Part shown: positions 8,248 to 48,480 of the stretch, piece by piece | Layout: each line of letters starts with the position of its first letter | How positions within the stretch are numbered: the first letter of the stretch is position 1 | Assembly: GCA_049519415.1 (NCBI GenBank) | Contig: JBEKQU010000007.1 | Span: 24,061 to 88,060 of the forward strand | Direction: 5' to 3' | From: Spirochaetia bacterium | GTDB lineage: Bacteria > Spirochaetota > Spirochaetia > SZUA-6 > Fen-1364 | Length of the DNA: 64,000 bases | Translations under genes and position numbers: made by a program | The notes under the pieces: generated by a model | Databases searched by the model: none | The model's input: the letters and a program-made list of their open reading frames with translations, nothing else | Told to the model about the DNA's origin: nothing

Positions 8248-8390
8248 GCAGTTCAGGGGAGCCCTCAGGCAACGCGCGAGGTGACAATTCTAAAAAGTGC
8301 ACATGGATGCTCTCTTTGTACCGCCATATTCCTGGCTTATGCTTTTAGAATAAACTGGCAACATTCAATGAAGGCAAAAGGAAGAAGGGC

Positions 8391-10687: not shown

Positions 10688-10716
10688 TAAATCATGCGGC
10701 CAACTGGCAGGCGCGT

Positions 10717-11817
10717 TTATTGTTGAGCGAATTTGCTGATGGTTTTCTGAGCTTTCGCGGCGATGAAAGCCCCGAGAAGGGCGTTGCCGTAGCCGTGCGG
10801 ATGCACTCCGTCGCACGCAACCTGCGTGGGTACGTCCACTTTGAATAGATGCTGCAGGGGTGCCGTATCGATCAGGTGGACTTTTGTATCGCCTTTTTCG
10901 TTTGAGATGGATACAGTATGCGCCAGCTCTTTCGCATGCCAGCCGAGCGGCGGCACAATGCAGAATACCAGGGCATTCGGACATGCTGTACGCAGGGAAG
11001 CAAGCCATAGCAGATACGCGTCAGTGACGTCCAAATGCCTCAAGGTGCCGGCCTCTCTTATAAAATCGTTCGAACCCATCGCGCAGAATATATAATCGGG
11101 TTCGGGGAGCAATTTCGAGTCGATGAGCCGGGAATAGTCCCTGCAATAATGATCCCAGGTGTCCGTCAATGGAGGCATTTGAAGATGCGTGATTACCATG
11201 CCCTGGCCCCCGGTGCCAAGCTGGCCGTATTCGCAGCCCAACGCGGCGCAGACAAGCGGGAACCAGGTGGTACGGGCATTGTTATGCGCCAGATTGCCGT
11301 AGAAATGGGTGTCTTTGTCCAGGGCAAGCAACTCTGAATACACCCCTTCCGTGAAGGAATCCCCATAGCAGATCGCGGTCCTCGGACGTCTTGGAACGGA
11401 AATAAGAGAGGCGCCGTCGTTCACTTCGAAACCGGCTATTCGCAGGCTGTACAGCGATGAGTCCCAGCGTTCCCGGGAGAGCATCGCCGAGCGAAAATAC
11501 AGGTCAATCCGATGCTGTGCCGGCGGATCTTCTCCATGATACAAGGGGATCACATAGTGCTCTTCCGTTTTTGAGAGCTGCTCGGAAACAAACGGCCCAA
11601 AATCAACAGAGTATTCGACCATCGGCATTGCAGTCGAAGCACAGCCGATATTTCCAGCGCCGCCGATAATGATGCCGATGTCGGAGGCGTTTTTAAATAC
11701 AGCCTTGATGTACGCCCCGGGCATGTTTGCTTCTATTTTTGCGTCTGGTCCAATTCCCGTTTTTTTCCAGACATAGGGCGCGAGCAGAATGTCTTCGCTG
11801 TCGATAGTGATCCGCAT
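10717..11817 (-). CDS. SGNH/GDSL-family hydrolase (putative carbohydrate esterase) with an N-terminal extra domain
   Basis: GDS motif (AICYGDSFTEGV) and D-x-x-H motif (CDGVHPHGYG). ATG at 11815-11817 sits 17 nt downstream of the permease gene. Lower GC than the surroundings. Confidence 0.7.
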   Translation of the reverse strand: MRITIDSEDILLAPYVWKKTGIGPDAKIEANMPGAYIKAVFKNASDIGIIIGGAGNIGCASTAMPMVEYSVDFGPFVSEQLSKTEEHYVIPLYHGEDPPAQHRIDLYFRSAMLSRERWDSSLYSLRIAGFEVNDGASLISVPRRPRTAICYGDSFTEGVYSELLALDKDTHFYGNLAHNNARTTWFPLVCAALGCEYGQLGTGGQGMVITHLQMPPLTDTWDHYCRDYSRLIDSKLLPEPDYIFCAMGSNDFIREAGTLRHLDVTDAYLLWLASLRTACPNALVFCIVPPLGWHAKELAHTVSISNEKGDTKVHLIDTAPLQHLFKVDVPTQVACDGVHPHGYGNALLGAFIAAKAQKTISKFAQQ

Positions 11818-11834
11818 CGTCCGGCTCGCGGTCT

Positions 11835-12674
11835 TCAGGCTTTCAACCCCGTGGTGGCCATGCCCTCGACAATCTGACGCTGGAAGAAAAAGTAAAAGAT
11901 GATCTGAGGAATCAGCATCATGATGACCGCACGCATCATGGCGGCCAGGTCCTGTCCGTATTGCTGCTTGAAAAAAGAAGCCGCAAGGGGAATGGTGAAA
12001 TTCTTGATGCTGCTCAAGAGAATCGATGCCAGGGTCCACTCGTTCCAGGCCCAGAGAAAGTTGAAAATGATCAGCGTCGCGATGATGGGCGCGATCAGCG
12101 GCACAACAATAGTGATGAAGATTCTCAAGACGCCGCAGCCGTCGATGATCCCCGCTTCCTCCAACTCGAGCGGGACTCCCTTCATTGCGCCGACGAAAAC
12201 AAGGGTGTTGAAGGGAATGGAACCGGCGATGTAGGGGAAAGGAAGTCCATAGATGCTGTTGGTGCCGATGCCCAGCGGTTTGAGGGTCAAGGCAATGGTA
12301 TAGACAGGGTACAGGATGATGAAAAGCGGAACCGCGGCGCCCAACAGGAACACGTAATAGAAGAAATTGCCGAACCCTTCATGCCGATGGTGGAGACGCG
12401 CGATGGCAAAAGAGCTCGGGAGGTTGATAAAGAGACAGCCGAGCGTTGTGATCGTTGTCACAATGAGGCTGTTCTTGAACAGGTTGCCCATGTTGGATTT
12501 GAGAAATGTATCGATGTACAAGGCGAAATCAAGTTTGGCGGGCAGTCCGAGAGGCTCATTGTAGATCGTGGTGTTGTTCTTGAAGGACAGAATGAAGCCC
12601 CAGATGAAGGGAAAAAACATGACAACGCAGATCAGGATGGCCCCGATGTAGATGATGATTCGTTTTGATTTCAT
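11835..12674 (-). CDS. Sugar ABC transporter permease (MalG-like)
   Basis: 279 aa, TM-rich, with an EAA loop (LEEAGIIDGCG). Lower-GC gene. Confidence 0.8.
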   Translation of the reverse strand: MKSKRIIIYIGAILICVVMFFPFIWGFILSFKNNTTIYNEPLGLPAKLDFALYIDTFLKSNMGNLFKNSLIVTTITTLGCLFINLPSSFAIARLHHRHEGFGNFFYYVFLLGAAVPLFIILYPVYTIALTLKPLGIGTNSIYGLPFPYIAGSIPFNTLVFVGAMKGVPLELEEAGIIDGCGVLRIFITIVVPLIAPIIATLIIFNFLWAWNEWTLASILLSSIKNFTIPLAASFFKQQYGQDLAAMMRAVIMMLIPQIIFYFFFQRQIVEGMATTGLKA

Positions 12675-12683
12675 CGTGTCCTC

Positions 12684-13559
12684 CTAATCCTCAATTCTTC
12701 TCGCGGTAATCCTCAGCGTTCCCACTGAAAACACCATGAGAATCACAAACATGAGAAAAGCGATCGAGGATGCATAGCCGGCCTGCCGCGCCCAGACAAG
12801 CCGCTCATACATATACGAAGCCACCGTATGAGAGTAGTAATTCGGTCCACCGTTGGTGAGAATATACACGGTCTGCAAACTCTGAATCGCATTAAGAACG
12901 ATATAGATGGTCACTATTTTCAAGGTTTCCTTCAGCATCGGTATCGTGATGAACCTGGTGTTTTGCCATCCCGAAGCTCCATCCATCTGTGAAGCCTCGA
13001 AAAGCTCCCGGGGAATCATCCTGAGTCCGGCCATGAACAATACCGAATAGAAGCCGAGGGCTTTCCAGCTTTCGATGACCGTGACCGTGTAGGGAGTCAA
13101 ATACTTTCCCCCGATCCATTGGAAGGCAAGCGCATCGAGGTGAACGGATTTCAGCAGTATGTTGAGGATCCCGATTCCCGGATCCACAATGAAGAACCAG
13201 ATTTGGGTGGTCAATATTGTTGACAGAATGTAAGGCGTGAAGCACAAAAGCTTCACGACATCACTTCCGCGAAATTTCATATTGATGAACATTCCCAGCA
13301 GAAAGGAAAAGGGAATGATGAGGATGAGCTCGCCAATCGTGATGATTGCAGAATTGCTGAGAGCAATCCGAAGATGAGTGTCGGCAAACATGCTCAGGTA
13401 ATTAGCCAGGCCAACGAAACGCCCCGGCATGAAGGTGGGCTTGTTCTGGAAAGAGATGAGAAGCGAATAGAAGATGGGATACACCGTGTAGACGCCGAAA
13501 AAGATCAGGACGGGAGTAAAGAAGAGAAGTTTGATCCACCGTTTGCAGTACTTGAACAT
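12684..13559 (-). CDS. Sugar ABC transporter permease (MalF-like)
   Basis: 291 aa, TM-rich, with an EAA loop (FEASQMDGASGW). Confidence 0.8.
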   Translation of the reverse strand: MFKYCKRWIKLLFFTPVLIFFGVYTVYPIFYSLLISFQNKPTFMPGRFVGLANYLSMFADTHLRIALSNSAIITIGELILIIPFSFLLGMFINMKFRGSDVVKLLCFTPYILSTILTTQIWFFIVDPGIGILNILLKSVHLDALAFQWIGGKYLTPYTVTVIESWKALGFYSVLFMAGLRMIPRELFEASQMDGASGWQNTRFITIPMLKETLKIVTIYIVLNAIQSLQTVYILTNGGPNYYSHTVASYMYERLVWARQAGYASSIAFLMFVILMVFSVGTLRITARRIED

Positions 13560-13699
13560 GCTTCAGCCTCCTTGAGCCTCTCTGCAAAACATGCTGAATA
13601 CAAACCGAGATCGTGCGTGAACAAAAGTCCCTGCCGAACAATCTCCCCTGGAGGGCATCGTTCGACAGGGACACATGAGAACGGAATCTGCCGCCTGGC

Positions 13700-15034
13700 C
13701 TACTTGCTCTTGCGCAGGTCCGCCAGCTTGCCGTTCACGACATCGATGGCAGCATCGATCTTCGCAAGCTCTCCGGGGATATCCTTGGCAGTCATGCTTC
13801 CGTTCATGAGGCTGTTTTCGAGGTTTCCTCTGATTGTGCCCCAGCCCTCTGTCCAAAGATCCGCGTTGGTGTCCCAGATCCGGTAGGACGCATAGTCTGA
13901 ATTATACGATGCGATGATGCTATTGTCCTGGATCAAGGCAATCTGCTGTTTCATGATGGCGCCCAGCTTGGATGCATCAAACTTGACGTTGACAGGGAGG
14001 ATGGATCCAAGGCTCAACGCCAGCGGGAAGCCCTGTGCAGAGTAGCGGAACTTGTTGAAATCCACGATCGCTTTAAGCTTGTCAGGGTCGCTCGCCACGT
14101 TCGCGCCAACTCCAAAGCCATTGGGAACCGCCCTGACCTTGACGTTCTGCTTGTACGGGGACTTGGGGAATGTGACGCCCCAGTTGAAGACGTAGTTCTT
14201 CTCCAGGGGCTGCCCGATGATTTTTCCGAGCTGGTCAGAGGGAAGGGTGATGGCTGCCGCCTTGCCGGAGTTGAAGAGGCTGCAGGCCTGATCGAAGGAC
14301 ATGGTGGAGTTATTCTGCGGGAAGGCGCCCAGGGCGTACAATTCCGCCTCGGAATAGTAGGCCTGTTTGAAATCAGCATCCTGGGCCCTCAATGTATGAG
14401 TCTTGAACACCTGATCCGCCTGGTCCCAGATGCCCCAGAGAACCAGCCAGTGCTCGAAGCCCCACACCGCCCAACCCTCTTTCGAGCCGTAGGCGAGGGT
14501 GACAACGCCGTTCCTCTTGAACACGGGCACATCGGCCTTGAGCTCCTCATAGGTGGTGGGAATCTTCAATCCGTACTTGTCGAAGAGAGCCTTGTTCCAG
14601 ACCCAGCCCTGCACCTGGCTCTCCGAGGGGTATGCCGCGATCCTGCCGTCTGGAGTTGTGATTTCAGTCAGGGCGCCTTTTACAAACGTTGCCTTGAAAG
14701 CGGCATCGTAGTAAGGGGTGAGATCAAGCAAGGATTGCGAGTTCATCAGGTAGTCGACAAAATGCGCTCCGTTGTCCCAGAACAAGTCGGGCAGGCTGTT
14801 GGATTGGACAAGGATCGGCATCTTCACCGGCATATCCGCATGATCGATGACCTGGTAATCGAATTCAATGTTCGGATGCGCCTTCACATACGCGTCAATG
14901 GCAACGCCGACCTGATCGGTTTCCTTGGCAAAGGGGGTCTGATACGTGATCGTAACCTTGGCTTGGGCAAATGACGGTATGCCGACAACAAGCATGCACA
15001 TTGCTACAAGAAACAACAAACCCAGTTTCTTCAT
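13700..15034 (-). CDS. ABC transporter substrate-binding protein (extracellular solute-binding family 1)
   Basis: Signal peptide MKKLGLLFLVAMCMLVVGIPSFAQA. AGGAGG RBS precedes the ATG at 15034. Confidence 0.85.
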   Translation of the reverse strand: MKKLGLLFLVAMCMLVVGIPSFAQAKVTITYQTPFAKETDQVGVAIDAYVKAHPNIEFDYQVIDHADMPVKMPILVQSNSLPDLFWDNGAHFVDYLMNSQSLLDLTPYYDAAFKATFVKGALTEITTPDGRIAAYPSESQVQGWVWNKALFDKYGLKIPTTYEELKADVPVFKRNGVVTLAYGSKEGWAVWGFEHWLVLWGIWDQADQVFKTHTLRAQDADFKQAYYSEAELYALGAFPQNNSTMSFDQACSLFNSGKAAAITLPSDQLGKIIGQPLEKNYVFNWGVTFPKSPYKQNVKVRAVPNGFGVGANVASDPDKLKAIVDFNKFRYSAQGFPLALSLGSILPVNVKFDASKLGAIMKQQIALIQDNSIIASYNSDYASYRIWDTNADLWTEGWGTIRGNLENSLMNGSMTAKDIPGELAKIDAAIDVVNGKLADLRKSK

Positions 15035-15199
15035 CTGTGGATCCTCCTGTTCTGGATGCCTGGTCGTCTACGACGACCGCTTTAAAAAGGCGTGTTCTAT
15101 GGCAGGTTTTTGCTGGCCTCCCGCCATATATCGATCTCGAATCGTCCTCCTTCTTTACGGATAGGTTGCTTCCTCATCAACGTGAGGTCATTTTCACGA

Positions 15200-15246
15200 G
15201 GAGTTTAGGACTGACCGTGGCGGTTGTCAATTGTTAACAAATCCTG
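15200..15246 (-). promoter_or_regulatory. Putative sigma70 promoter, TTGACA-17-TAAACT on the minus strand, with an adjacent palindromic TTGTTAACAA element (minus-strand read TTGTTAACAATTGACAAC)
   Basis: Read directly. Located upstream of the minus-strand ABC operon. A near-identical 19-mer recurs at 39611-39629. Confidence 0.4.
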
Positions 15247-15305
15247 ACTCAATAGAATTGTCCCCTGCACGCAGCCTGTGGGCCACGAAGGGCCATTGGC
15301 GTCGA

Positions 15306-18224: not shown

Positions 18225-18422
18225 GATTCTTTTCCTATACTCTCACGAGCGAAAAGGGTCAACGGGAAGCTCCCAGGGGCACTCCATAGAAATGTCAAGG
18301 CGCATCGCCCCCATGACAATTCTATCGAGTGAACCTGTTCGGCTTTTTGACCGCCGCGTGCGCGATTTGCTACGCTGCGGTGTGCTTTTGGAATCAATAA
18401 GGAAATCGGGAGGCACAGGAAA

Positions 18423-18881
18423 ATGATCGTAGCGAAACTCGAACGCGCGGCGCAGCAGACGGCTCTCACCCCGAAATTCGAGAAGGCATATCGCTTCCTC
18501 CTGGATGCAAAGGGTCGCACCCTGGCTGAAGGGAAAATCGAGATTGATGGCGACAGGGTCTACGCCATGGTCCAATCCTACGAGACCCAGCCGGGCGGGG
18601 AGCCGAAGTTCGAAGCGCACCGGAGATACGCCGACATTCAGTACATTACCGGCGGGGAAGAGCTCATCGGCTGGGCCCCGCTGGAGAAGATGACCGTAAC
18701 GCAGGAATACGACCAGGCCAAGGATGTTGCCCTTGGAAAGGTTGCATCAGCGGATGTGACATCAGTGCGGCTTTTCGCGGGAGAGCTCGGGGTATTCTAC
18801 CCCAGCGATGCGCACGCTCCCAAGCAGGCAGTGGGGAAGCCGGGGAAGGTGCACAAGATCGTCGTCAAGGTGGCGATGTGA
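18423..18881 (+). CDS. YhcH/YjgK/YiaL family protein (DUF386, sugar anomerase-like)
   Basis: 152 aa. MIVAKLE...KFEKAYRFLLD...FEAHRRYADIQYI pattern typical of this family. GGGAGG RBS. Confidence 0.7.
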   Translation: MIVAKLERAAQQTALTPKFEKAYRFLLDAKGRTLAEGKIEIDGDRVYAMVQSYETQPGGEPKFEAHRRYADIQYITGGEELIGWAPLEKMTVTQEYDQAKDVALGKVASADVTSVRLFAGELGVFYPSDAHAPKQAVGKPGKVHKIVVKVAM

Positions 18882-19929
18882 CAGTTTCGTAAATAGCGCA
18901 CGCGTTTTCCATCGGGGTATCGATCTCGAAAAAGTGCGTGGGCGCGACCACGCAGCCGCTCCCTCCGGAAGCCCTGACGATCCGGGCGGTCTCCCTGCGC
19001 ACATCGTCGGGGTTTCCGTGGGCAAGAACGCTCTGGAGTCCGATCATCCCGTGGAAGGTTATATGCCTGCCGAAATCCCTGAACAAACCCTCGGCATCCA
19101 TTCCTTCGGCCTCCACCTGGACCGTTTGGTAAATATCGAGGCCCATGTCGATCCACAGCGGCATATGGCGGCGGTTGGAGCCGCAGGAATGCAGCATGAC
19201 TTTCGCGCCGTACCTATGCCCGAGCTCTATGAAGGCCTTGAGCTTCGGCGCAAAGACTGACTTCCAGGAGTCGAGGCTCATAAGGGGACCGGCTTGCGTC
19301 CCATAGTCGTCCCCTATCCAGAGAATGTCGATTTTTCCCTTTGCCGTCTTCAGGCCTCGTTCGGCGACCTCCAGGAGGATCTCCTGCCGCCGCTCCATGA
19401 GCGCCAGTCCCACTGGATCCTCTGTGGCGACATCCATAAGAACCTGCTCCATGCCCCTCGCGAAAGAGGTTCCATTGATGAGGTCCATCAAGCCAGGGTG
19501 CCCGAAGACAACCACGTACTCGTCGCGGACCTTGTCGCACTGACGCTCCAATTCGGAGAAATTGAATAGATCCGGCGAGGGCCAGGGATAGGAGCTCACC
19601 TCGTCCATCGTCTCGATGCGGGCGAAAGGCCTGTATTCGACTTCATCGTAGCTTCCGAATGAGTTGACGACGGGCCTGCGGCGCACGCCCCACATGTCGG
19701 TGAAGAACCCCTTTTCGTCCTTGGGATAGGGTTTTCTGAAATCAGCGTGCGAGAGGTGCCTGAAATCGATGTCGAGCTTTCTGAGGGCCTGCTCGTAGTC
19801 CGCAACGCCGAGATGGCTTGCTATGCGCTTGGGGACCTGCCCTTCCGCGATGAAATCCATGGGCAGCCTGTCGCAGGCCTCGTGCCTCAGCGCTGATTCA
19901 AACCGCGCGCGATGATTCATGGGGCTCAT
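18865..19929 (-). CDS. URO-D / MtaA-CmuA superfamily methyltransferase-like protein, paralog 3
   Basis: N-terminal MNHRARFESALRHEACDRLPMDF and IGDDYGTQAGPLMSL ... VMLHSCGSNRRHMPLWIDMGLDIYQTVQ (H-x-C-G motif). The ATG at 19927-19929 overlaps the upstream stop. The ORF track's 140-aa N-terminal extension is read-through. Confidence 0.75.
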   Translation of the reverse strand: MSPMNHRARFESALRHEACDRLPMDFIAEGQVPKRIASHLGVADYEQALRKLDIDFRHLSHADFRKPYPKDEKGFFTDMWGVRRRPVVNSFGSYDEVEYRPFARIETMDEVSSYPWPSPDLFNFSELERQCDKVRDEYVVVFGHPGLMDLINGTSFARGMEQVLMDVATEDPVGLALMERRQEILLEVAERGLKTAKGKIDILWIGDDYGTQAGPLMSLDSWKSVFAPKLKAFIELGHRYGAKVMLHSCGSNRRHMPLWIDMGLDIYQTVQVEAEGMDAEGLFRDFGRHITFHGMIGLQSVLAHGNPDDVRRETARIVRASGGSGCVVAPTHFFEIDTPMENACAIYETVTSPP

Positions 19930-25972: not shown

Positions 25973-26746
25973 TCACGAACTGTGGAGAAAGCACCCGCCC
26001 TGGGTCATCAGGACCACGCGGGTTGCGGGGGATACGCGTGCGCACTCGGCTACGAATGCCGCGGGATCTCCGCCATGCTGTATGAATGTCCAGAAGTGGC
26101 ACGGGATGACCACGGCAGCTCCCACGTCGCGCGTGAGGGCCGCCGCATCCCCGGCTCCCATGTTTCCGTAAGCGCCGTTGATGGCAGGGATGATCACCTG
26201 GGGTTTCAGCGACGCCACCTCAGCCATCCTGGCGGGACGGTACGCGGTATCTCCGGTGAAATAAACCCGTAGAAAGCCGAAGTCCAGAACAAATCCGACC
26301 GCGTCGGGGGCCAGATCCCCATGGTCGGCGTACACGGCGCGCACCGTGACAAACCCCAGCTCCGCCTCGCGCCCCTCCCGCACCTCGGTGATGCGTCCCT
26401 TGTTGATCCCCAGGCCAAGAAGCCTCCTGACGGTCTCCGCGGGCGCAACGAAATGCGCCCTGGTTTTCTTCGCGATAACGGGAATGGCGTCGATGTCAAG
26501 GTGATCCTCATGGTGATGGGTGAGGAGCACCGCATCGGCGCGAACCTCGGCGGGCGAGACGACTCCCGCCATGATGCGCTTGAAACCCGCGAGCCGCTCC
26601 ACGCTGTCCGTGAGGTAGGGGTCCACGTATGCGATTTTCCCGTCAGGGGTCTTGAAAACGAAACCCGCCTGACCCAGCCAGAAGATGCCGACGCTCCGCG
26701 CCGGCACCGAGAGGCGCTGAATGGATTTCGCGACGTCGGTGGTCAA
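25973..26746 (-). CDS. MBL-fold metallo-hydrolase (UlaG-like lactonase/hydrolase)
   Basis: HHHEDHLD (H-x-H-x-D-H) motif. 257 aa. Confidence 0.7.
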   Translation of the reverse strand: MTTDVAKSIQRLSVPARSVGIFWLGQAGFVFKTPDGKIAYVDPYLTDSVERLAGFKRIMAGVVSPAEVRADAVLLTHHHEDHLDIDAIPVIAKKTRAHFVAPAETVRRLLGLGINKGRITEVREGREAELGFVTVRAVYADHGDLAPDAVGFVLDFGFLRVYFTGDTAYRPARMAEVASLKPQVIIPAINGAYGNMGAGDAAALTRDVGAAVVIPCHFWTFIQHGGDPAAFVAECARVSPATRVVLMTQGGCFLHSS

Positions 26747-27417
26747 GAAACTTCTATCTCCTTCGGGTGGGTTTCCTGGTAGGTCTCAATAAGGTGGGCG
26801 TACGCGGTGTCCAAATGCTCCTGGAGGATGCTCGTGCATCTCTCGGCGTCTCGCCTGTGAAGTGCGTCCAGAAACTCCTTGTGCGTGGCATTGGCTACCC
26901 GAAAGTTTTCTATGGCAAACGCATTTCTCGAATAGATGAGAAACCAGATCTGCGTCTTGATGCTCTGCCACAGGGAAAGGAGACGGTTATGCCCGGAGAT
27001 TTTCACAAACTCCTCATGAAACCGCAGATCGAGATCCACCGCCTCGTGCAGCGAGAACTCGTGATTCATGCATTCATCAAGCGCTTCGATCCCCTCCTGG
27101 AGCCGCGCAAAATCGATGACCCGCGCTCTCTCCATGACATAGCGCAGGGCCAGCAGTTCGAGGGCCAGACGGAGGCTATGGACTTCCTCCACATCGTTCA
27201 CCGTCATGCTGACGACGGTGGCGCTGCGGTTGGGCTCCCGGACGATGAGCCCCTCGTGCTCAAGCTGGTTGAGCGCGTCGCGCACCGGACCGCGGCTGGT
27301 TTTCATCATGGCCGAGATCGCTTGTTCGAGTATCCTTTCCCCTGGCTTGATGTTGCCGGTGAGGATTTCCAGACGGAGTTTTCTCACGACCTCGTCGGCC
27401 AGAGAGCTCCTTTCCAC
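26743..27417 (-). CDS. GntR-family transcriptional regulator, FadR/FCD subfamily
   Basis: N-terminal wHTH (ERILEQAISAMMKTSRGPVRDALNQLEHEGLI) plus a C-terminal all-helical FCD domain. 224 aa. Translationally coupled within the long minus-strand operon. Confidence 0.8.
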   Translation of the reverse strand: MERSSLADEVVRKLRLEILTGNIKPGERILEQAISAMMKTSRGPVRDALNQLEHEGLIVREPNRSATVVSMTVNDVEEVHSLRLALELLALRYVMERARVIDFARLQEGIEALDECMNHEFSLHEAVDLDLRFHEEFVKISGHNRLLSLWQSIKTQIWFLIYSRNAFAIENFRVANATHKEFLDALHRRDAERCTSILQEHLDTAYAHLIETYQETHPKEIEVS

Positions 27418-27479
27418 TGGTGTGAGCAGGGACGGTTTTGCGCGGACTCTTATGGAGCTATTGATAATGCCCCCCTCTC

Positions 27480-28717: not shown

Positions 28718-28745
28718 ACTCTTTAGAAATGACCCTTGCCCGGTA
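28718..28745. repeat. 26-nt motif, copy A: GACTCTTTAGAAATGACCCTTGCCCGG (minus-strand read CATTTCTAAAGAGT), 130 nt upstream of the first gene of the long minus-strand operon
   Basis: Near-identical to 48453..48480 (ACTCTTTAGAAATG then NCCCTNG..CCCGG). Both are followed 20-37 nt later, on the minus strand, by TTCGTAGG. Confidence 0.5.
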
Positions 28746-33775: not shown

Positions 33776-34741
33776 ATGAAGGTAGCCATTACAGACTATG
33801 CTTTCGAAACGCTGGAAATCGAAAAATCGATTCTGGAACCGCTGGGATGCCGGATCGTCGATCAGAAATCGGGCAAAGACGTGGCAAAACTCATGGCGCT
33901 GGTGAAGGATGCAGACTACGTCATCACCCAGTTCGCTCCCGTCAACGCCGAGGTGATCGGCGCCATGCAGAAATGCAAGGTAATAGTGCGCTACGGCATT
34001 GGCGTGGACAATGTCAATCTTGAGGCGGCCGCGGCCCGCAAGATTCCCGTGTGCAATGTGCCCGACTTCTGCACGGACGAGGTTGCCGACCACGCGCTTG
34101 CCATGATCCTGGAAATGACCCGGAGGGTCGCTGAGAACGGGACAAAGGTGCGCTCGGGAGGGTGGGGTCTCGCTGTTGCTCTGGAGTCAATGAAGACGCT
34201 CAGGGACATGACCGTAGGCATCGTGGCCTTTGGCCGCATAGGCCGTGAGGTCGCGCTCCGGTTGAAGCCCTTCAAGTGCCGCATCCTGGTCACGGACCCC
34301 GTGGTGCCTGCTTCCCGCATCAGGGAGGAAGGGTTCACGCCTGTTTCCCTTGACGAGCTGCTGGCGCAGAGCGATCTGATCACGCTGCACTGCCCCAGCA
34401 CCGAACAGACCCGGTACATGATCAATGCTCAAAGAATTTCCCAGATGAAGCGCGGAGTGCTCCTGGTCAATGTTTCGCGCGGCACCCTCGTGAAGACCGA
34501 CGACCTCGTCGCCGCTCTGCAGAGCGGGACCATCGCCGCCGCGGCGATGGATGTCACGGATCCCGAGCCCATCAGCCCCGACAGCCCGCTGGTGAAGATG
34601 CCCAACGTCATGATCAACTCGCACGTCGCTTCGGCCAGCGTTGCCTCGGCGAAGAAGCTGAGAACGGACGCCGCGCAGACTGTTGCAATCGCTGTACGGG
34701 GCGGCACGCTTCCGAATATCGTGAATGGCGTCAGGGGCTAG
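33776..34741 (+). CDS. D-isomer-specific 2-hydroxyacid dehydrogenase
   Basis: MKVAITDYAF..., GIVAFGRIGREVALR Rossmann motif and catalytic H. AAGGAGA RBS before the ATG at 33776. Confidence 0.8.
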   Translation: MKVAITDYAFETLEIEKSILEPLGCRIVDQKSGKDVAKLMALVKDADYVITQFAPVNAEVIGAMQKCKVIVRYGIGVDNVNLEAAAARKIPVCNVPDFCTDEVADHALAMILEMTRRVAENGTKVRSGGWGLAVALESMKTLRDMTVGIVAFGRIGREVALRLKPFKCRILVTDPVVPASRIREEGFTPVSLDELLAQSDLITLHCPSTEQTRYMINAQRISQMKRGVLLVNVSRGTLVKTDDLVAALQSGTIAAAAMDVTDPEPISPDSPLVKMPNVMINSHVASASVASAKKLRTDAAQTVAIAVRGGTLPNIVNGVRG

Positions 34742-35808
34742 AGCGCGGGCTCCCGCCTTTTAGGCGCCTGAACTTCCACGAGCATTTTGATCTTCGTCTC
34801 GCTCTTCTCGTTCGCCGTCTTCATGGCGTTTATCGCGGCGTCAAAGGGGATCCGGTGGGTGATGAGCGGCTTCAGGCTCATCTTCCGCTGTGCCATGATT
34901 TCGATCACCTGTTCGGCAAGGCCGAACTCTCCCATGATGCCCTGCAACTGCACTTCCTTGAAAACCAGCGCATCGATGTTGAAGCCGTTCAGAGCTGTCT
35001 CGAAAAAGCCGATCAGGGCGATGATCCCCCGTTGCGCAACGACACTCAGACACTGGCTGACGGTCTGGATGTTTCCGGAGGTCTCCAGCACGGCATCAAC
35101 GCCCTTTCCCGCCGTATGCTTCTTCACGAAGCCGGCGAGATCTTCTTCGGTGACATTCACGACAGCATCCGCTCCCATGGCTTTGCCAACGGCAAGCTTG
35201 CTGGGCTTCCTGCCGCTCAGGAGAACCCTGCCGGCGCCCTTGCTCTTCACCAGGGCGAGCGCGGCAAGGCCGATGGGACCGGTGCCGACGATCAGCACGC
35301 TGGTGGAGGGGGTGATGCCGATCTTCTGCACGCCGGCAAGCGCGATGGAGGCAGGCTCTATGAGAGCGGCCTCGTCAAGGTCAATGGAATCAGGCAGCGC
35401 ATGCATGTGCCGTTCCGGTATGAGCATGTACTCTGCAAACGACCCGGGCCAGTGATTGACGGTCCCCAGGGACCTGCCATTTTGGCATTTGCCGAGCTCA
35501 CCCCTGAGGCAATACTCGCAGGTTCCGCAGGTGACGGCGGTGTCGGACACGACCCGGTCTCCCGGCGTGAAGCGTGTCACGCCCGAGCCGACCTGCTCCA
35601 CGATCCCCGACCATTCATGCCCTATGCGCACCGGGTAGGTGATCAGGCCTTCCCGGATCAGGCTCATGTTCCCGCTCAGAATGGCCAGGTCAGTGCCGCA
35701 GATTCCGGCCCAGGCCACGCGGGTGAGAACATCTCCCGGCCCTATGACGGGCTTGGGGGTTTCCACCATCCGGATGTTTCCCGGGGATTCGATGACGATC
35801 GCCTTCAT
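34738..35808 (-). CDS. Zinc-binding MDR alcohol dehydrogenase (sorbitol / L-idonate / threonine dehydrogenase family)
   Basis: GHEWSGIVEQVG zinc-site motif, structural zinc cysteines (CGTCEYC) and GTGPIGLAA Rossmann motif. Confidence 0.85.
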   Translation of the reverse strand: MKAIVIESPGNIRMVETPKPVIGPGDVLTRVAWAGICGTDLAILSGNMSLIREGLITYPVRIGHEWSGIVEQVGSGVTRFTPGDRVVSDTAVTCGTCEYCLRGELGKCQNGRSLGTVNHWPGSFAEYMLIPERHMHALPDSIDLDEAALIEPASIALAGVQKIGITPSTSVLIVGTGPIGLAALALVKSKGAGRVLLSGRKPSKLAVGKAMGADAVVNVTEEDLAGFVKKHTAGKGVDAVLETSGNIQTVSQCLSVVAQRGIIALIGFFETALNGFNIDALVFKEVQLQGIMGEFGLAEQVIEIMAQRKMSLKPLITHRIPFDAAINAMKTANEKSETKIKMLVEVQAPKRREPAL

Positions 35809-35825
35809 GTTCCCGCCCTATTTAC

Positions 35826-36638
35826 TCAGATTCCCGGCACGTATCCCTTGCCGTACCGGGCAGGCTCCTGGTCGCGGAAACCGCTGTTGAGGGAAAACCA
35901 CGCGGTTGTGCCGCCGTCGACGACGATGGTCTGACCGACGATGTACCGGGCAGCATCCGACGCAAGGAAAACAGCGACCTTTCCGATATCAGAGGGCTGT
36001 CCTTCGAAGCCCGCCGGTATCAACTTTCCCACCGCCTTCGCATCGAGATTGGCGATGAGCTTGTGATGGTTCTCCACCTCCGTGGGTCCAGGAGCAATGC
36101 CGTTGACCCGGATGCCCCGGGGCGCCAGCTCGATGGCGAGCGCCCTGGTGAAGGAAACCATGGCCCCCCGGGTCCCCGCGTACACCGTATGCTCGAGCCT
36201 GCCCCCGAAGGCGTGAATGGAGGAGATGTTGATGATGGCCGCGCCTTTGGCTGCCAGAAGCGCCGGCAGCAGCTCCTGGGTGAGAAAAAAAGGCGCTCTG
36301 ACGTTCACCGCGTAGAGTATCTCGAACTGTTCCGGCGTCACCGTCTCCAGGAGCCTGTTCATCGTGATGCCCGCGCTGTTCACCAGGACATCGATACCTC
36401 CGAGAAATGCCAGGGCCTCTTTCGCCAGCCCTCGCACATCCTCCAGGCGGGTGAAGTCTGCGCTGAATGCGGCTGCGTTTCCGCCGCTGGCGAGGATTTC
36501 ATCCACCGCCTTTTTCGCGCCCTCACCGCTATGGGAGTAGTGCAACGCAACCAAGGCCCCCGCCTTGGCGAACTCGAGCGCTATTCCCTTGCCGATGCCG
36601 GTGCCGGATCCCGTGACGAGAACGCGTTTCCCTTTCAT
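35826..36638 (-). CDS. SDR-family oxidoreductase (KduD / 2-deoxy-D-gluconate 3-dehydrogenase-like)
   Basis: VLVTGSGTGIGKGIA Rossmann motif. 270 aa. Confidence 0.8.
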   Translation of the reverse strand: MKGKRVLVTGSGTGIGKGIALEFAKAGALVALHYSHSGEGAKKAVDEILASGGNAAAFSADFTRLEDVRGLAKEALAFLGGIDVLVNSAGITMNRLLETVTPEQFEILYAVNVRAPFFLTQELLPALLAAKGAAIINISSIHAFGGRLEHTVYAGTRGAMVSFTRALAIELAPRGIRVNGIAPGPTEVENHHKLIANLDAKAVGKLIPAGFEGQPSDIGKVAVFLASDAARYIVGQTIVVDGGTTAWFSLNSGFRDQEPARYGKGYVPGI

Positions 36639-36645
36639 GACGCGC

Positions 36646-37683
36646 CTACCTTTGAACCCTTCCGGACGCGTCCCCGCCCATCAAGGCCTCGACTTCCCTG
36701 ACCGAAACCAGGTTGAAGTCGCCAACGATCGAGTGCTTGAGGCAGGAGGCTGCGGCCGCAAAGTCCACGCAGTGCTGCCCGTCAAACCCGGACAGCAAGC
36801 CATAGATGAGGCCGCCGGTGAACGAGTCGCCGCCGCCGACCCTGTCAACGACCGGATTCAGCTCGTATTTCCGGCTGAGGTAGTGCGCAGCGCCATCGTA
36901 GAGCAGCCCGGCCCAGCCGTTCACGGAGGCGGATACGCTCTCGCGCAGGGTGGTGGCGACGTGGGCGAAATGAAAACGCCGCGCAAGCTGCTCAGCCACC
37001 TGTTTGTACGACTCTCCCGCCAGCCTGCCGTGTGCCGCGTCGCTTCCCTCCGGCTTGATTCCGAAGACCTTTTCAGAGTCTTCCTCATTGCCGACGAGCA
37101 CGTCGACATACCGCATCAACCGCGACATGACACGGTTGGCCTCCTGAGGGCTCCAGAGCTTTGCGCGGTAATTCAGGTCGCAGCTTACGGTGAGCCCATG
37201 CTTTTTTGCCGCCGAAAGCCCGTCTTCCAGGACGCGCTGCACGTTCTCGCCGAGCGCCGGCGCGGTGCCGGAAAAGTGGAACCAATCCTTTCCCGAGCAG
37301 ATGGTCTCCCAGTCGTAGTCCTCCGGCTTCGACTCGCGAATCGCGCTGTGCGAGCGGTCGTAAATGATCTTCGAGGCTCGCTGCGCGGCGCCGGTCTCCA
37401 GGTAGAACAGGCCCAGCCTTTCGCCGCCCCGCGCAATGAAGTCCGTGTTCACCCGGAAACGGCTGAGGTAGTTGATGCATGCCTGGCCGATCTCGTTGTC
37501 CGGCACCTTTGAGACGGCATAGGCTTCCATCCCGAAGTTCACGAGCGACACGGCGGCGTTGGCTTCCGCGCCCGTATAGCGCGCCTCAAAATCGTCAGCC
37601 TGCACGAAACGCCCGACGCCCCGGGGGGCAAGTCTCAGGAGCAGCTCTCCGAAGGCGACGATTTTTTTCTTCTTCCCTTCCAT
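36646..37683 (-). CDS. kdgK: 2-dehydro-3-deoxygluconokinase (PfkB family), copy 1
   Basis: MEGKKKKIVAFGELLLRL N-terminus and C-terminal DRVGGGDSFTGG anion-hole motif. ATG at 37681-37683 overlaps the eda stop. The ORF track's 115-aa upstream extension is read-through. Confidence 0.85.
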   Translation of the reverse strand: MEGKKKKIVAFGELLLRLAPRGVGRFVQADDFEARYTGAEANAAVSLVNFGMEAYAVSKVPDNEIGQACINYLSRFRVNTDFIARGGERLGLFYLETGAAQRASKIIYDRSHSAIRESKPEDYDWETICSGKDWFHFSGTAPALGENVQRVLEDGLSAAKKHGLTVSCDLNYRAKLWSPQEANRVMSRLMRYVDVLVGNEEDSEKVFGIKPEGSDAAHGRLAGESYKQVAEQLARRFHFAHVATTLRESVSASVNGWAGLLYDGAAHYLSRKYELNPVVDRVGGGDSFTGGLIYGLLSGFDGQHCVDFAAAASCLKHSIVGDFNLVSVREVEALMGGDASGRVQR

Positions 37684-38339
37684 CACTGGCCCCTGCGCGC
37701 GTCGGCCACGATTTTGATGAAGTTTCGGGCGTTCTCCGTCATGACGTTGAACTGACGGTTCTTGAGCGCGGCGGGATCGACAAGCGCCTTCCCGACGCCC
37801 ACGGCCACCGCCCCGGCTTTTATGTACTCGGGGGCGGTCTTTGTATCGACGTTGCCCGTCACCAGCATCCGGATGTGCGGCAGCGGCCCCTTGAGGTCCT
37901 GAAAATAGCCCGGCGTGCCGAGCCGTCCCGGGAAGATCTTCACGACGTCGGCTCCCGCTTTCCACGCGGTGACGATCTCTGTGGGAGTGACGCACCCCGG
38001 CATGACCGCGGTGTCGTAGAGCTTGCACATGTCCACCATGTCGCGATCGAAGCAGGGCCCGACAACGAAGCTCGCGCCCGCCAGGATGGCCATGCGCGCG
38101 GTTGTCGCGTCCAGCACGGTGCCCGCGCCGATGAAAACCTCGTCGCCGAGCTGCCTGCTCGCCGCGGCCACGATCTCAAGCGCGCCGGGCACGGTCATGG
38201 TGATCTCCACCAATCGGACGCCGCCCTTGCCCATGGCACGGGCAACCTCGAGGAGGTCCGTCGGGTCGTCGACGCGTATCACGGCCACGACCCCTGTTTC
38301 CGCAAGCGTCCGCAGGACTAGCTGTTTTGCTGATGCCAT
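37683..38339 (-). CDS. eda: KDPG / KHG aldolase
   Basis: 218 aa with a typical Eda fold and a catalytic-lysine region (GADVVKIFPG). Confidence 0.85.
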   Translation of the reverse strand: MASAKQLVLRTLAETGVVAVIRVDDPTDLLEVARAMGKGGVRLVEITMTVPGALEIVAAASRQLGDEVFIGAGTVLDATTARMAILAGASFVVGPCFDRDMVDMCKLYDTAVMPGCVTPTEIVTAWKAGADVVKIFPGRLGTPGYFQDLKGPLPHIRMLVTGNVDTKTAPEYIKAGAVAVGVGKALVDPAALKNRQFNVMTENARNFIKIVADARRGQ

Positions 38340-38370: not shown

Positions 38371-39534
38371 TCACACCGCCAATTTATCGGTCCGCCGACC
38401 CGGGGAGGGAATCTCCTCAAAAGTCAATTCAGTGCCCTTGTAAAGAAAATGGAGGGAGCCGTCAAGCCATTCAGAAACCACGATTTTCTGGATGGGTTCA
38501 CGAATGATCGCACACCCGCTCCGCGGGCGAAACCGCCTGTGATTGTGATCGACCACCAGGTCCGGTCCGACCCTATGCTCCTGCTGCGTGCAGAATATCG
38601 ATCGAAGGTCTGTGCCGTCGACGATCGGCACATGATAGTCGGCGGGGCATGGGGTGCACGTCGCGAAAAGCGCGTTCAGCTTGTCGTCGAGGGGGCCTTG
38701 CATCATCGCGTTGACTCCCTCGAAGGTTGCCGCCGATGAGCCTCGCAGCTCGCTCTCCAGGAACCCCATCAACGGCTTCAGATCGAGCAGCACGGTCCTT
38801 GCCTGGGGAGGATTCAGCGCTCCCACATCGATTCCCAGTCTTTCGCAGGAGCGCGCGAAAGGCGTGCGCTGTTCATCGCCCGCGAGCTGCTCTTCGAGCG
38901 TGGGATGACGGTTTTCGCAGAGCACGAACCTTCTCGCGCAGCGAAGCGCCGCGGGAATTCCATGCCGATCTATCCAGATCCAGAGGAGGCGCATCGCGGC
39001 CGCGCTGGATTCTTCCGGCGCGGCCAGCCACAGGCTTCTGGAGGTCGCCTCATCGCGTATGCACAGAAGGCAGGCCGTGGGAAGCTCCGCGATGATCGAA
39101 CCCGACCGGATGGCCACCAGTGTCAGAACCTCGCCGAAACCCCTCCCTGAGCGGTTTGCCCGCGGCGTCATTATCCTGTTCCTGCTCAGCTTCCATAAAT
39201 CGCTCTCGATGAGCCATCGACGGAGGGTCTCATGGTCTATTACGATGCCGCTCTTTTCGAGCTCTTCCGCGAATTGTGTCGGCCCGAGGCCTGGGGCGTG
39301 TTTCCGGTATTTTCCCAGTATCTCTTCCTTGAATACATCAGGGAAGGCTCTGTTCGATGGCTTGCCCCTGTTGCCGTGGGCGAGACCCTGTTCACCTTCC
39401 TCGCGGAAGCGCTTCCAGATTCTTTTGACCTGTCGGGAGGAGAGCGCCAGGATCCTGCTTGCCTGGTCAAGCGTCAATGTGCGGTTGCTCACCCTGTTGA
39501 GCACCATGCACCTTCTGTTCTCATTCTCTCTCAC
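38371..39534 (-). CDS. ISNCY (IS1202-group)-like transposase, possibly degenerate
   Basis: N-terminal HTH region ...RRCMVLNRVSNRTLTLDQASRILALSSRQVKRIW..HGNRGKPSNRAF... aligns with ISNCY transposase N-termini. The segment expected to carry the first DDE Asp reads LVAIRSGS / CIRDEAT, so acidic residues may be substituted. Start ambiguous: GTG 39534 or ATG 39507 (the ORF track starts at TTG 39618). Confidence 0.55.
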   Translation of the reverse strand: MRENENRRCMVLNRVSNRTLTLDQASRILALSSRQVKRIWKRFREEGEQGLAHGNRGKPSNRAFPDVFKEEILGKYRKHAPGLGPTQFAEELEKSGIVIDHETLRRWLIESDLWKLSRNRIMTPRANRSGRGFGEVLTLVAIRSGSIIAELPTACLLCIRDEATSRSLWLAAPEESSAAAMRLLWIWIDRHGIPAALRCARRFVLCENRHPTLEEQLAGDEQRTPFARSCERLGIDVGALNPPQARTVLLDLKPLMGFLESELRGSSAATFEGVNAMMQGPLDDKLNALFATCTPCPADYHVPIVDGTDLRSIFCTQQEHRVGPDLVVDHNHRRFRPRSGCAIIREPIQKIVVSEWLDGSLHFLYKGTELTFEEIPSPGRRTDKLAV

Positions 39535-39559: not shown

Positions 39560-39630
39560 AGATTCTTCCGCTGAAGCCGTACTGTTTGCAGGATATATTG
39601 GCAACAGTTAGTTGTCAACTGTTAACAAAA
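39560..39630 (-). promoter_or_regulatory. Putative promoter TTGACA-N16-TATATC with an adjacent TTGTTAACA element (minus-strand read TTGTTAACAGTTGACAAC). Second copy of the 15228 motif.
   Basis: Read directly. The AT-rich region 39630-39729 follows. This is either the displaced native promoter of the eda-kdgK operon or the IS-end promoter. Confidence 0.35.
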
Positions 39631-39729: not shown

Positions 39730-40773
39730 TCAGCGCTGGATTCTCCCCGATGCATCACCCCCCATCAAAGCAAGCACTTCATCGAATGTCACGAGGTTGA
39801 AATCCCCATGAATGGTGTGCTTCAGGCAGGAGGCCGCGGTGGCGAACTCGACGCTTTCCTGCAGGTCCTGGCCCGTGAGAAGTCCGTAGATAATGCCCGA
39901 TGAATAGGCATCCCCGCCGCCGATCCTGTCGACGATGTAGTCCATGTGGTACTTGCGGCTGGTGTAGAACCGTTTGCCGTCGTAAAGCATGCCTGACCAG
40001 TTGTTCGCGGTGGCGGACAGGCTCTCGCGCAGCGAGATGGAAACGTAGTCCAGGTGGAACCTCTCGTGGAGCTGGGCAGCCACGTCCTCATAGCCGCGCT
40101 CGCTGATCTTTCCCCCCTTGACGTCGCTTCCCCGCGCCGCTATCCCGAAGACCGTTTCCGCCTCTTCTTCATTGGTGAAAAGAATGTCAACGTATTCCAT
40201 CAAGCCGGACATGACCTCCCGGGCTTTCTCCGGGGACCAGAGCTTCCTGCGGAAATTCAGATCGCAGCTGATCGTCACGCCCTTCTTTTTCCCCGCGACG
40301 CACGCTTCCTTCGTGATGGCCGCGACGCTGTCCGCCAGTGCGGGAGTGATCCCCGTGAAGTGGAACCAGTGCTTGCCTTCGAAGACGGAGTTCCAGTCGA
40401 TGTCCCCGGAGCGCAGCTCCGTGATCGAGCTGCCCTTGCGGTTGTACAGGAACGTGGAGGGCCTCTGCGCCGCTCCGGTCTCCACGAAATAGATGCCCAG
40501 CCGATACCCGTTTTTCCTGACGTAGTCGAGGTTAAGCCCGAACTGGCGCACGTAGTTCAGGCAGGCCTGGCCGACCGCGTTGTCGGGGACGCTGGAGACC
40601 AGGAAGCTTTCGATCCCGAAAGCCTCCAGGGCGACACCGAGGTTCGCTTCGGCCCCGCTGTAGATGACATTGAACTCCCGCGCCTGCACGATGCGCTCGT
40701 GCTGCTTGGTCGACAGGCGCATCATGAGCTCGCCGAACAGAACGACCTTTTTATCCGATGCGATCTTCTTCAT
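39730..40773 (-). CDS. kdgK: 2-dehydro-3-deoxygluconokinase (PfkB family), copy 2
   Basis: 347 aa, collinear with copy 1 (DRIGGGDAYSSG, identical GDFNLV..EV.ALMGGDASGR.QR tail). Confidence 0.85.
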   Translation of the reverse strand: MKKIASDKKVVLFGELMMRLSTKQHERIVQAREFNVIYSGAEANLGVALEAFGIESFLVSSVPDNAVGQACLNYVRQFGLNLDYVRKNGYRLGIYFVETGAAQRPSTFLYNRKGSSITELRSGDIDWNSVFEGKHWFHFTGITPALADSVAAITKEACVAGKKKGVTISCDLNFRRKLWSPEKAREVMSGLMEYVDILFTNEEEAETVFGIAARGSDVKGGKISERGYEDVAAQLHERFHLDYVSISLRESLSATANNWSGMLYDGKRFYTSRKYHMDYIVDRIGGGDAYSSGIIYGLLTGQDLQESVEFATAASCLKHTIHGDFNLVTFDEVLALMGGDASGRIQR

Positions 40774-42846: not shown

Positions 42847-42876
42847 CCGTTCAGCCCTCCCCGCGACGCATCGGCA

Positions 42877-43992: not shown

Positions 43993-44001
43993 GCGATTCC
44001 C

Positions 44002-45165: not shown

Positions 45166-45186
45166 ATTTCTCCTTGCTTGCGCGAT

Positions 45187-45969: not shown

Positions 45970-45970
45970 C

Positions 45971-48452: not shown

Positions 48453-48480
48453 AACACTCTTTAGAAATGTCCCTGTGGCC
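48453..48480. repeat. 26-nt motif, copy B: ACACTCTTTAGAAATGTCCCTGTGGCCCGG. Overlaps the TAA stop of the GH63-like gene and sits 69 nt upstream of the UxaE-like start.
   Basis: Compare 28718..28745. On the minus strand it is followed 37 nt later by TTCGTAGG and then the RBS. Confidence 0.5.

Follow-up and report, generated by a model that had tools for sequence, protein, structure and literature searches.

A DDE-less transposase homologue and its promoter module at a sugar-acid locus of a Spirochaetia bacterium: a candidate domesticated regulator

Does the transposase-like gene that precedes eda in the genome of this Spirochaetia bacterium represent a mobile element that has separated a promoter from its operon, or does it belong to the sugar-acid locus in which it stands? 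The question is raised by a 64-kb stretch of DNA (hereafter the window, i.e. the whole stretch that was analysed), in which two almost identical 19-nt sequences (19-mers) are found on the minus strand, at 15223..15241 (copy 1) and at 39611..39629 (copy 2), the latter close to the gene in question, here named gene X (38371..39534, minus strand). A first-pass annotation had taken both copies for promoter/operator elements and gene X for an insertion sequence (IS) that had cut a promoter off from its operon. The former proposal stands and the latter does not: no IS appears to have cut a promoter from an operon, and the 19-mer is predicted to be the promoter module of gene X (promoter P_X) and, in this sublineage, of an ABC-transporter operon (promoter P_ABC). 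It is, in our judgement, fairly probable that gene X encodes a transposase that has been domesticated and works as a transcription factor, the 19-mer being the promoter module both of the sugar-acid operon that X heads and of the linked transporter. A fuller version, in which an IS1202-family transposase was domesticated into a transcription factor that controls a uronate/2-keto-3-deoxygluconate (KDG) regulon via end-derived 19-bp boxes and is autoregulated through TTRACAR heptamers, that is, through the 19-mer, is given about an even chance.

Gene X and its history in the Spirochaetota

Gene X encodes a protein of 387 aa from a GTG at 39534, or of 378 aa from the ATG at 39507 that was called by the source pipeline. 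The GTG is probably the start codon, because the nine codons before the ATG show synonymous changes when orthologues are compared and are preceded by an AAGGGGG ribosome-binding site. X is predicted to be the first cistron of an X-eda-kdgK-SDR-ADH operon. Indeed, it is followed after 31 nt by eda (37683-38339), then by kdgK1 (36646-37683; gap 0 nt), an SDR gene (35826-36638; gap 7 nt) and a Zn-ADH gene (34738-35808; gap 17 nt), these downstream cistrons spanning 34738..38339 on the minus strand. On the other side, a kdgK2 paralogue (39730..40773, minus strand), the last gene of a UxaE...DHDPS-kdgK2 operon, ends 100 nt upstream of copy 2, a gene context that agrees with the one first described.

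As judged from its sequence and predicted fold, gene X descends from an IS1202-family (ISTde1-type) transposase. Indeed (i) it is homologous over its full length to IS1202/ISTde1 (formerly ISNCY) transposases (30-42% identity), with which it shares a helix-turn-helix (HTH) domain at the N terminus, an RNase-H-like core and a C-terminal beta domain, (ii) the NCBIfam model ISNCY_2 aligns with the full-length protein, at 167 bits for a cutoff of 250, and the Pfam matches are to HTH families only, with no rve domain, (iii) an AlphaFold2 model of X (mean pLDDT 81) shows two three-helix bundles, a disordered linker, an RNase-H-like core and a beta domain, and its best fold matches in the PDB are the IstA, TnsB and MuA transposases and retroviral integrases. 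A search of PDB sequences gave only one weak match, to the N-terminal region of TnsB (E 0.002). A linker motif, GNRGxPSNRAF, is conserved.

The catalytic residues have been lost and the DNA-binding domain has been kept under constraint. Active relatives carry the catalytic motifs VQxDGS, LYxD(R/K)K and GRVER; in the alignment of the syntenic clade, in which two deeply diverged members are less clear, the three catalytic positions have changed from D to A or S, from D to A or Q, and from E to L or H, and by inspection the X proteins of L010, L011, L018 and L111 (L-numbers designate the loci that were compared) also lack the active-site motifs. Nearly all invariant alignment columns fall within the N-terminal 115 residues. 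Gene X is under purifying selection, with a pairwise dN/dS of 0.17-0.33, versus 0.09-0.23 for eda and kdgK. Constraint is strongest in the HTH region (0.07-0.26) and persists in the dead core and the C-terminal domain (0.21-0.37).

Synteny and dS indicate that gene X has for a long time stayed at one host locus in a clade of Spirochaetota, immobile and passed on vertically. The exact protein is found in 3 assemblies, always at this locus and at this single locus. Among its 629 homologues, the closest (88-42% identity) are single-copy on long contigs, and more distant ones lie on ~1.5-kb contigs, as multi-copy IS elements do; a genome scan placed the X clade in metagenome-assembled genomes (MAGs) of Spirochaetota only, with homologues of 35-77% identity at the conserved place. 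Comparison with orthologous loci, which had been suggested as a check, showed that orthologues of 77, 70, 52, 50 and 43% identity stand directly before eda-kdgK (L004, L005, L007, L008/L009, L010, L111), with the order X-eda-kdgK-DHDPS in L111 (43% identity). The clade-wide gene order is an SBP gene on the minus strand followed by eda2-kdgK2-X-eda1-kdgK1, the exception being L011 (X 49% identity), which has no eda1 and in which kdgK1 comes directly after X. The position of X differs from the usual eda-kdgK-proximal place in L112 and in L018, a Treponemataceae MAG in which X (35% identity) is divergent to an SBP operon. Furthermore, the dS of X is similar to that of eda and kdgK, and X has therefore co-diverged with them. 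No IS-type ends or boxes flanking X were found with the box search or with an nhmmer profile of IS ends, the stop codon of X being only 31 nt from eda; no inverted partner of the 19-mer was found on the far side of X at up to 3 mismatches; and no target duplication, multiple copies or variable location were found for X. Across the clade, X is flanked by two anciently diverged eda-kdgK pairs, kdgK1 and kdgK2 being 52-55% identical; kdgK2 is seemingly fragmented in L007.

The 19-mer and the two promoters

The two copies read GTTGTCAATTGTTAACAAA (copy 1) and GTTGTCAACTGTTAACAAA (copy 2) on the plus strand, TTTGTTAACAATTGACAAC and TTTGTTAACAGTTGACAAC on the minus strand, and differ by one mismatch, as had been noticed, although copy 1 begins at 15223, five bases to the left of the 15228 given at first. 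Their common minus-strand form is TTTGTTAACA(A/G)TTGACAAC, or in shorter form TGTTAACA(A/G)TTGACAA, and their core 16-mers lie on the minus strand at 15224-15239 (TGTTAACAATTGACAA) and 39612-39627. No further match was found at up to 3 mismatches on both strands of the window, and two matches were obtained in 0 of 100 dinucleotide-preserving shuffles (mean 0.01). A longer repeat around the copies was looked for, and the likeness ends at 19 nt; the 8-mer TGTTAACA, the palindromic part common to both copies, occurs nowhere else in the 64 kb. The perfect palindrome that had been described beside the -35 box holds for copy 1, where it is 10 bp long (TTGTTAACAA); in copy 2 the sequence is TTGTTAACAG and only the 8-bp core is palindromic. 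A metagenome collection, from which the source species is evidently missing, gave 14 matches to the exact 19-mer with R at the variable position, about as many as expected by chance and always on contigs of 27-43% GC; X, SBP, eda, kdgK1/2, DHDPS and GntR were all absent from these 14 contigs.

The 19-mer is predicted to be a conserved promoter module with the core TG-TT(A/G)ACA-R-TTGACA-R, in which a second -35-like heptamer is followed by the -35 hexamer and then by a -10 at 17 nt. This spacing was found at both copies, in agreement with the 16-17 nt proposed earlier, and both hexamers are conserved in 7 P_X and 7 P_ABC spacers.

Copy 2 is predicted to be the own promoter of X, conserved with it. 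P_X (39590..39618, minus strand, sigma-70-type) would consist of a -35 TTGACA (39618-39613), a 17-nt spacer and a -10 TATCCT (39595-39590); copy 2 lies between kdgK2 and X, 77 nt upstream of the GTG and 104 nt upstream of the ATG. Only three blocks are invariant in the 7 aligned orthologous X spacers, namely TGTTAACA, TTGACA and, 17 nt downstream, TAnnnT, and the rest is unalignable; the distance from the start of the motif block to the X start codon, downstream of it, is 92-96 nt throughout the lineages. Of the 11 lineages whose upstream region is readable, 10 have the motif together with X; a three-heptamer version, TG-TTAACAA-TTAACA(A/T)-TTGACA(A/G), is present at P_X of L018 and L111, and P_X of L081 reads TGTTGACAGTTGACAAC. 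In the MAG JBKQPS01, TGTTGACA is found at both P_X (L081) and P_ABC (L093), an A-to-G change of the type TTAACA to TTGACA that breaks the dyad and keeps two TTRACA hexamers 7 bp apart, and TGTTAACA is found at both promoters in the window and in L004 and L095, which are probably one genome (same sample). Since TGTTGACA stands at both sites of one genome, this concerted change suggests either a common binder or gene conversion. L007 has one more copy of the motif (TGTTAACAGTTAGCAA) at 1203-1218, far from X, where no gene is called; a good TTGCTA-17-TATAGT promoter on the opposite strand has this copy within its spacer.

Copy 1 is predicted to be the promoter of the linked sugar ABC-transporter operon (10717..15034, minus strand), which encodes an SBP_bac_1 protein (13700-15034), two BPD_transp_1 permeases (12684-13559 and 11835-12674) and a GDSL-like hydrolase (10717-11817). 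A spacer of 271 nt separates this operon from a 2-hydroxyacid dehydrogenase gene, and copy 1 lies in it, 189 nt upstream of the operon, as its first description before an ABC/esterase operon implied. P_ABC (15202..15230, minus strand, sigma-70-type) would have a -35 TTGACA (15230-15225), a 17-nt spacer and a -10 TAAACT (15207-15202), and the same TTGACA-17-TAnnnT layout is present in the orthologous promoters of L093, L095, L007, L008, L010 and L011. The SBP orthologues of L095 and L093 (80% and 79% identity) have other upstream genes and retain the module, as the exact 16-mer in L095 and as TGTTGACATTTGACAA in L093, each with a -10 at 17 nt.

Boxes of IS-end type in the window and in related loci

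The active relatives of X belong to the IS1202 family (ISTde1 type): they measure ~1.57 kb, occur in multiple copies, have TGT tips and are flanked by target-site duplications of 16-17 bp. They were assigned to the ISTde1 subgroup because their repeats and tips agree with those described for it (16-17 bp, TGT; bioRxiv 10.1101/2022.12.17.520857). Gene X differs from these multi-copy elements in being DDE-less, single-copy, syntenic and under purifying selection, without terminal repeats or a target duplication. The ends of the active elements, defined from multi-copy sets in Hydrogenedentota, Acidobacteriota and other MAGs, each carry one or two boxes: the left end reads TGT(C/T)(G/A)nnACTCnnTGATAATGTC(C/A)CC and is followed by a second box, and the right end has GGGGACATTTCTA(A/T)CGAGT, in some cases a further box 7 nt on, and finally the tip (C/T)TTGACA.

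The 19-nt box of P_ABC, GGGGACAWTTCTAYYGAGT, is identical to the subterminal, transposase-binding repeat of these active IS ends. It is located at 15247..15265 on the minus strand (GGGGACAATTCTATTGAGT), 7 nt upstream of the 16-mer, 5 nt from the edge of the 19-mer and 16 nt upstream of the -35. A box GGGGACA(A/T)TTCTAT(T/C)GAGT stands 7 nt upstream of the 16-mer in the window, L093 and L095, and the nhmmer profile of IS ends matches these three P_ABC spacers with E-values of 2e-6 to 5e-5. A box with 0-1 mismatch is present upstream of the SBP operon in L007, L008, L010, L011, L093 and L095 despite diverged flanks; in the SBP promoter of the distant lineages it is followed by 16-17 nt and then by TTGACAA, and a second, divergent box faces eda2. 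P_ABC as a solo IS end or an insertion scar was considered and rejected, as its box-to-TTGACA distance (16-17 nt) is unlike the 1 or 27 nt of IS ends and its spacing is also unlike the tip, target-site duplication and TCAA geometry of insertions.

A search of the window with the IS consensus (up to 5 mismatches) returned 7 boxes for 1.1 expected (at most 3 in 30 shuffles), of which 6 are located at promoter regions, namely at 8280(+), 15265(-), 18299(-)/18312(+), 28736(-) and 48474(-), where each coordinate marks the 5' end of a box as read on the strand that carries it. In brief, these boxes are found, besides P_ABC, in the divergent spacer before a 363-aa/URO-D operon (box GGTGACAATTCTAAAAAGT, 8280..8298, plus strand, followed by N16, TTTGTA, N17 and TATGCT); as a back-to-back pair (18281..18330; 18299-18281 on the minus strand and 18312-18330 on the plus strand), each 16-18 nt from a TTGACC, in the spacer between a Cyclase-MR_MLE-2-Hacid_dh operon and a DUF386 gene; upstream of an Ldh_2 gene (box AGGGTCATTTCTAAAGAGT, 28718..28736, minus strand, followed by 14 nt and TTGACA); and 65 nt before UxaE, with which the UxaE...kdgK2 operon begins (box AGGGACATTTCTAAAGAGT, 48456..48474, minus strand). 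The units behind the boxes are thus the 363-aa/URO-D, ABC, Cyclase-MR_MLE-2-Hacid_dh and UxaE...kdgK2 operons and the DUF386 and Ldh_2 genes. At least seven URO-D (PF01208) paralogues are encoded in sugar-acid operons of the window (8391-10687, 18865-20897 and ~41701-46000), several of them directly behind box promoters, which is an unusual place for this family.

Every box is oriented toward its downstream -35. A -35-like hexamer follows 5 of the 6 boxes at 14-18 nt, and no clear -35 follows the box at 48474; overall, the distance from box to -35 is mostly 13-18 nt and most often 16 nt, with some spacings of up to 22-23 nt in related loci. Boxes are present at orthologous and at additional promoters in every related locus examined: the site orthologous to the 8280 box lies in L095 at 9944, a 19-mer identical to the 48456..48474 box is present in L009, and boxes outside the training set of the position weight matrix (PWM) are found in L009 (1309 and 19999), in L111 (five sites) and in L112 (two sites). 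Sites derived from transposon ends thus stand at host promoters, as indicated by their identity, enrichment, orientation, spacing and conservation.

No likeness to the ends of more than 50 active relatives was found for the 16-mer or for the 19-mer as a whole. The alternative offered by the first-pass annotation, that the copies were IS-end promoters, is nearer the truth than its main reading, in that the box of P_ABC is an IS subterminal repeat. The distance from tip to start codon is similar in both cases, the TG of the motif lying 92-96 nt (~93 nt) from the start of X versus ~97 nt for the active TGT tip; by sequence, this agreement would be either a bare coincidence or a faint trace.

The active copies (L012-L087) also show a target preference on one side. 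Directly 5' of the left duplication, they have (T/G)CAA, often TGTCAA (for example L012, 9880-9930 and 11440-11510), with TCAA in 15 and GCAA in 5 of 31 copies, a target that resembles their own left tip (IRL); in L057, the element is inserted 16 bp from the right end of another copy. The clearly delimited active right ends (L012, L029, L041 and others) all stop in (C/T)TTGACA, which is a perfect outward -35. Abutment of the right tip (IRR) and IRL would give TTGACA-N16-TAATGT, a potential circle-junction promoter. More speculatively, IS1202-type proteins may have a second recognition activity, for TTGACA/TGTCAA-like sequences.

Possible mechanism, alternative explanations and related systems

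In the proposed mechanism, X would bind the boxes through its retained HTH domain and would control a multi-operon sugar-acid (KDG/uronate) regulon. Binding of X to the box is a parsimonious assumption, since the box is identical to the end repeat of the ancestral transposase family, the HTH has been kept and is the most constrained part of the protein, and X is the only HTH protein of the 21-kb core cluster. The centre of the box at P_ABC lies at about -61 from the predicted transcription start, a position like that of class-I activators, which by geometry would suit activation. Transcription would start near 15195 at P_ABC and near 39583 at P_X, on the minus strand in both cases. A second operator, most likely for autoregulation by X, would be formed by the heptamers repeated at P_X and, in this sublineage, also at P_ABC; the heptamers resemble the IS tip TTGACA, and the binder of this second operator would be the least certain step.

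Several points weigh against this proposal. The binding of DNA by X, the direction of regulation and the identity of the 16-mer binder are entirely deduced, and X is tied to the 19-mer only by constant co-occurrence and one co-variation event. Neither the box search nor the nhmmer profile found a box or an IS end at any P_X, the profile matching only the box of P_ABC. The enrichment obtained with the PWM is partly circular, the boxes of the window having been in its training set, and the motif and box counts for the source genome cover the 64-kb window. In L112 (X 42% identity), the motif is missing upstream of X, on a contig that looks error-ridden and has fragmented genes. The left heptamer is degenerate at P_ABC of the distant lineages (AATCTCAG or TGATTACAG for TGTTAACAA), so the full likeness of copies 1 and 2 is specific to the sublineage of the window, and it could have arisen by gene conversion or convergence. 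Finally, a GntR/FCD regulator is encoded in the window (26746..27429, minus strand) and beside the SBP operon in L095, L096 and L111, and it could be the binder of either element.

The 16-mer could accordingly be the operator of a conventional regulator, for example of GntR/FCD type, that overlaps the -35, X having another role or none; we regard this as unlikely. In its favour, TGT-N2-ACA cores are typical of GntR/FadR-type operators and the core of the 16-mer fits them, GntR/FCD genes are close to hand, and P_X has no IS-type box. The dyad itself, perfect in most lineages, is not conserved: it is broken at both JBKQPS01 sites, where the tandem heptamers are retained, and the three heptamers of L018 and L111 alter any dyad spacing. 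Nor is there a second operator site TGTTAACA upstream of the GntR gene at 26746-27429, the window having only two; L096, with its adjacent GntR gene, uses a different repeated site (TGTTGACAATATAC), and neither L007 nor L008 has a GntR gene at less than 8 kb from X. The operator idea of the first-pass annotation, which had counted two GntR-type regulators, one of which was located here as the GntR/FCD gene, is weakened to that extent. It is somewhat more doubtful still that the 19-mer is just a strong promoter, with a consensus -35 and a -35-like or UP-like heptamer before it that RNA polymerase would read without any dedicated factor, the copies being alike by lineage style or gene conversion. 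CA(A/G)TTGACAA is indeed common to all P_X and all P_ABC, even without the left heptamer, both copies have a -10 at 17 nt, and L096 has TG+TTGACA as a plain -35. However, TGTT(A/G)ACA is invariant across lineages with dS >1 whose spacers are otherwise unalignable, a constancy greater than that usually seen upstream of a -35; one genome has the same A-to-G change at both of its sites; the left heptamer is missing from the other box promoters of the window and is hence not a feature of promoters in general; and the extra TGTTAACA of L007 lies inside the spacer of a different putative promoter.

The two explanations that invoke a mobile element fare far worse. A recent insertion of an ISNCY-type IS between the copy-2 promoter and eda-kdgK-SDR-ADH would account for the homology of X to ISNCY/IS1202 transposases and for its place 31 nt from eda with the motif just beyond; it is nevertheless highly improbable, and was rejected, given that X occupies the same place down to 43-50% identity (35-50% when all syntenic members are considered) with a dS like that of its neighbours, has lost its three DDE residues, is single-copy without IS-type ends or boxes, and has the motif at a fixed 92-96 nt from its start, conserved with it. 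Hardly credible at all is the proposal that some multi-copy IS has the motif as its terminal inverted repeat, with copy 1 a solo end and copy 2 the left end of a resident IS. The similar tip-to-start distances, the TTGACA tip of active right ends and the IS-type box adjoining copy 1 would fit it, but the ends of the active relatives are unlike the 16-mer and the profile has no match at P_X, there is no inverted partner downstream of X, the metagenome matches are 14 chance cases without the query genes, and every lineage has the motif tied to sugar-acid operons. The outcome named beforehand as one that would overturn the promoter/operator proposal, namely that the motif would turn out to be an end repeat of a multi-copy IS unconnected with sugar-acid operons, was not observed.

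If gene X is indeed a domesticated regulator, it has close parallels among eukaryotes. SETMAR/Hsmar1, FHY3/FAR1 and ZBED proteins are transcription factors that arose from transposases and bind what is left of the terminal repeats of their own elements, and the passage from transposase to transcription factor, with transposon-end relics as a cis-regulatory network, is a textbook case of eukaryotic regulatory innovation. The logic would be the same for X, with a DNA-binding domain kept, catalysis lost or irrelevant and end-derived sites scattered at host promoters; X differs in being bacterial, IS1202-derived, the first cistron of a catabolic operon and known from sequence alone, and in having boxes at a fixed distance from sigma-70-type -35 hexamers. 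The system would then be a prokaryotic counterpart of SETMAR- or FHY3-type networks. Transposases also commonly repress their own promoter by binding to the left end (IS1 InsA, IS911, IS30, IS21), which provides a model for X at P_X, the active relatives likewise ending in an outward TTGACA. However, P_X and P_ABC are not intact IS ends, and the box-to--35 distance of 1 nt (terminal) or 27 nt (subterminal) in the closely examined IS ends contrasts with the mostly 13-18 nt of the regulon promoters.

To our knowledge, the prokaryotic cases of domestication are the HUH-type RAYTs and RNA-guided TnpB derivatives. TldR, a TnpB-derived regulator, is RNA-guided, unlike X, for which classical HTH recognition of a 19-bp box is predicted. 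No bacterial regulator derived from a DDE transposase was found described in full-text searches of the literature, an absence there that is not proof of absence. RAYT/TnpA-REP is a prokaryotic domesticated transposon protein associated with REP sequences (PMC3333891). Like TldR, it shares with X the fixation of a transposon protein in a bacterial chromosome, where it acts on dispersed cognate DNA elements (as X would on its boxes), but RAYTs are catalytically competent HUH/Y1 enzymes with REP hairpins and X has a dead DDE fold. The locus offers a testable bacterial case, with a dead-DDE protein under purifying selection, a 19-bp candidate site identical to active IS ends, at least six candidate promoters in 64 kb and a promoter module that is conserved at the gene. 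It also illustrates how the label transposase gets such genes masked as mobile DNA, so that operon and regulon reconstruction goes wrong, as in the first reading of this locus.

Further observations concern the ABC operon and its relatives. Its 5' untranslated region (5'UTR) of ~160 nt (15035-15200, minus strand) has a conserved hairpin, CCTCACGTTGATGAGG, with compensatory changes in distant lineages, as well as a conserved GGAAAGGAGGGAG in the alignment with L093, L095, L007 and L008, and a hairpin GGTCGTCG...CGACGACC that adjoins the ribosome-binding site; no Rfam match to a riboswitch was found in it at E-values of up to 1, and it may be an unclassified leader or attenuator. The G+C content of the ABC/GDSL operon (10000-15000) is 50-56%, versus ~62% in the surroundings, and identical SBP proteins are found in at least five different samples. 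In L096, whose SBP orthologue is 75% identical, there is no IS-type box, and the site TGTTGACAATATAC(A/C) is present three times, at 4307, 4416 and 5926, surrounding the adjacent GntR/FCD gene and the SBP promoter, which suggests that the regulator has been replaced in this lineage.

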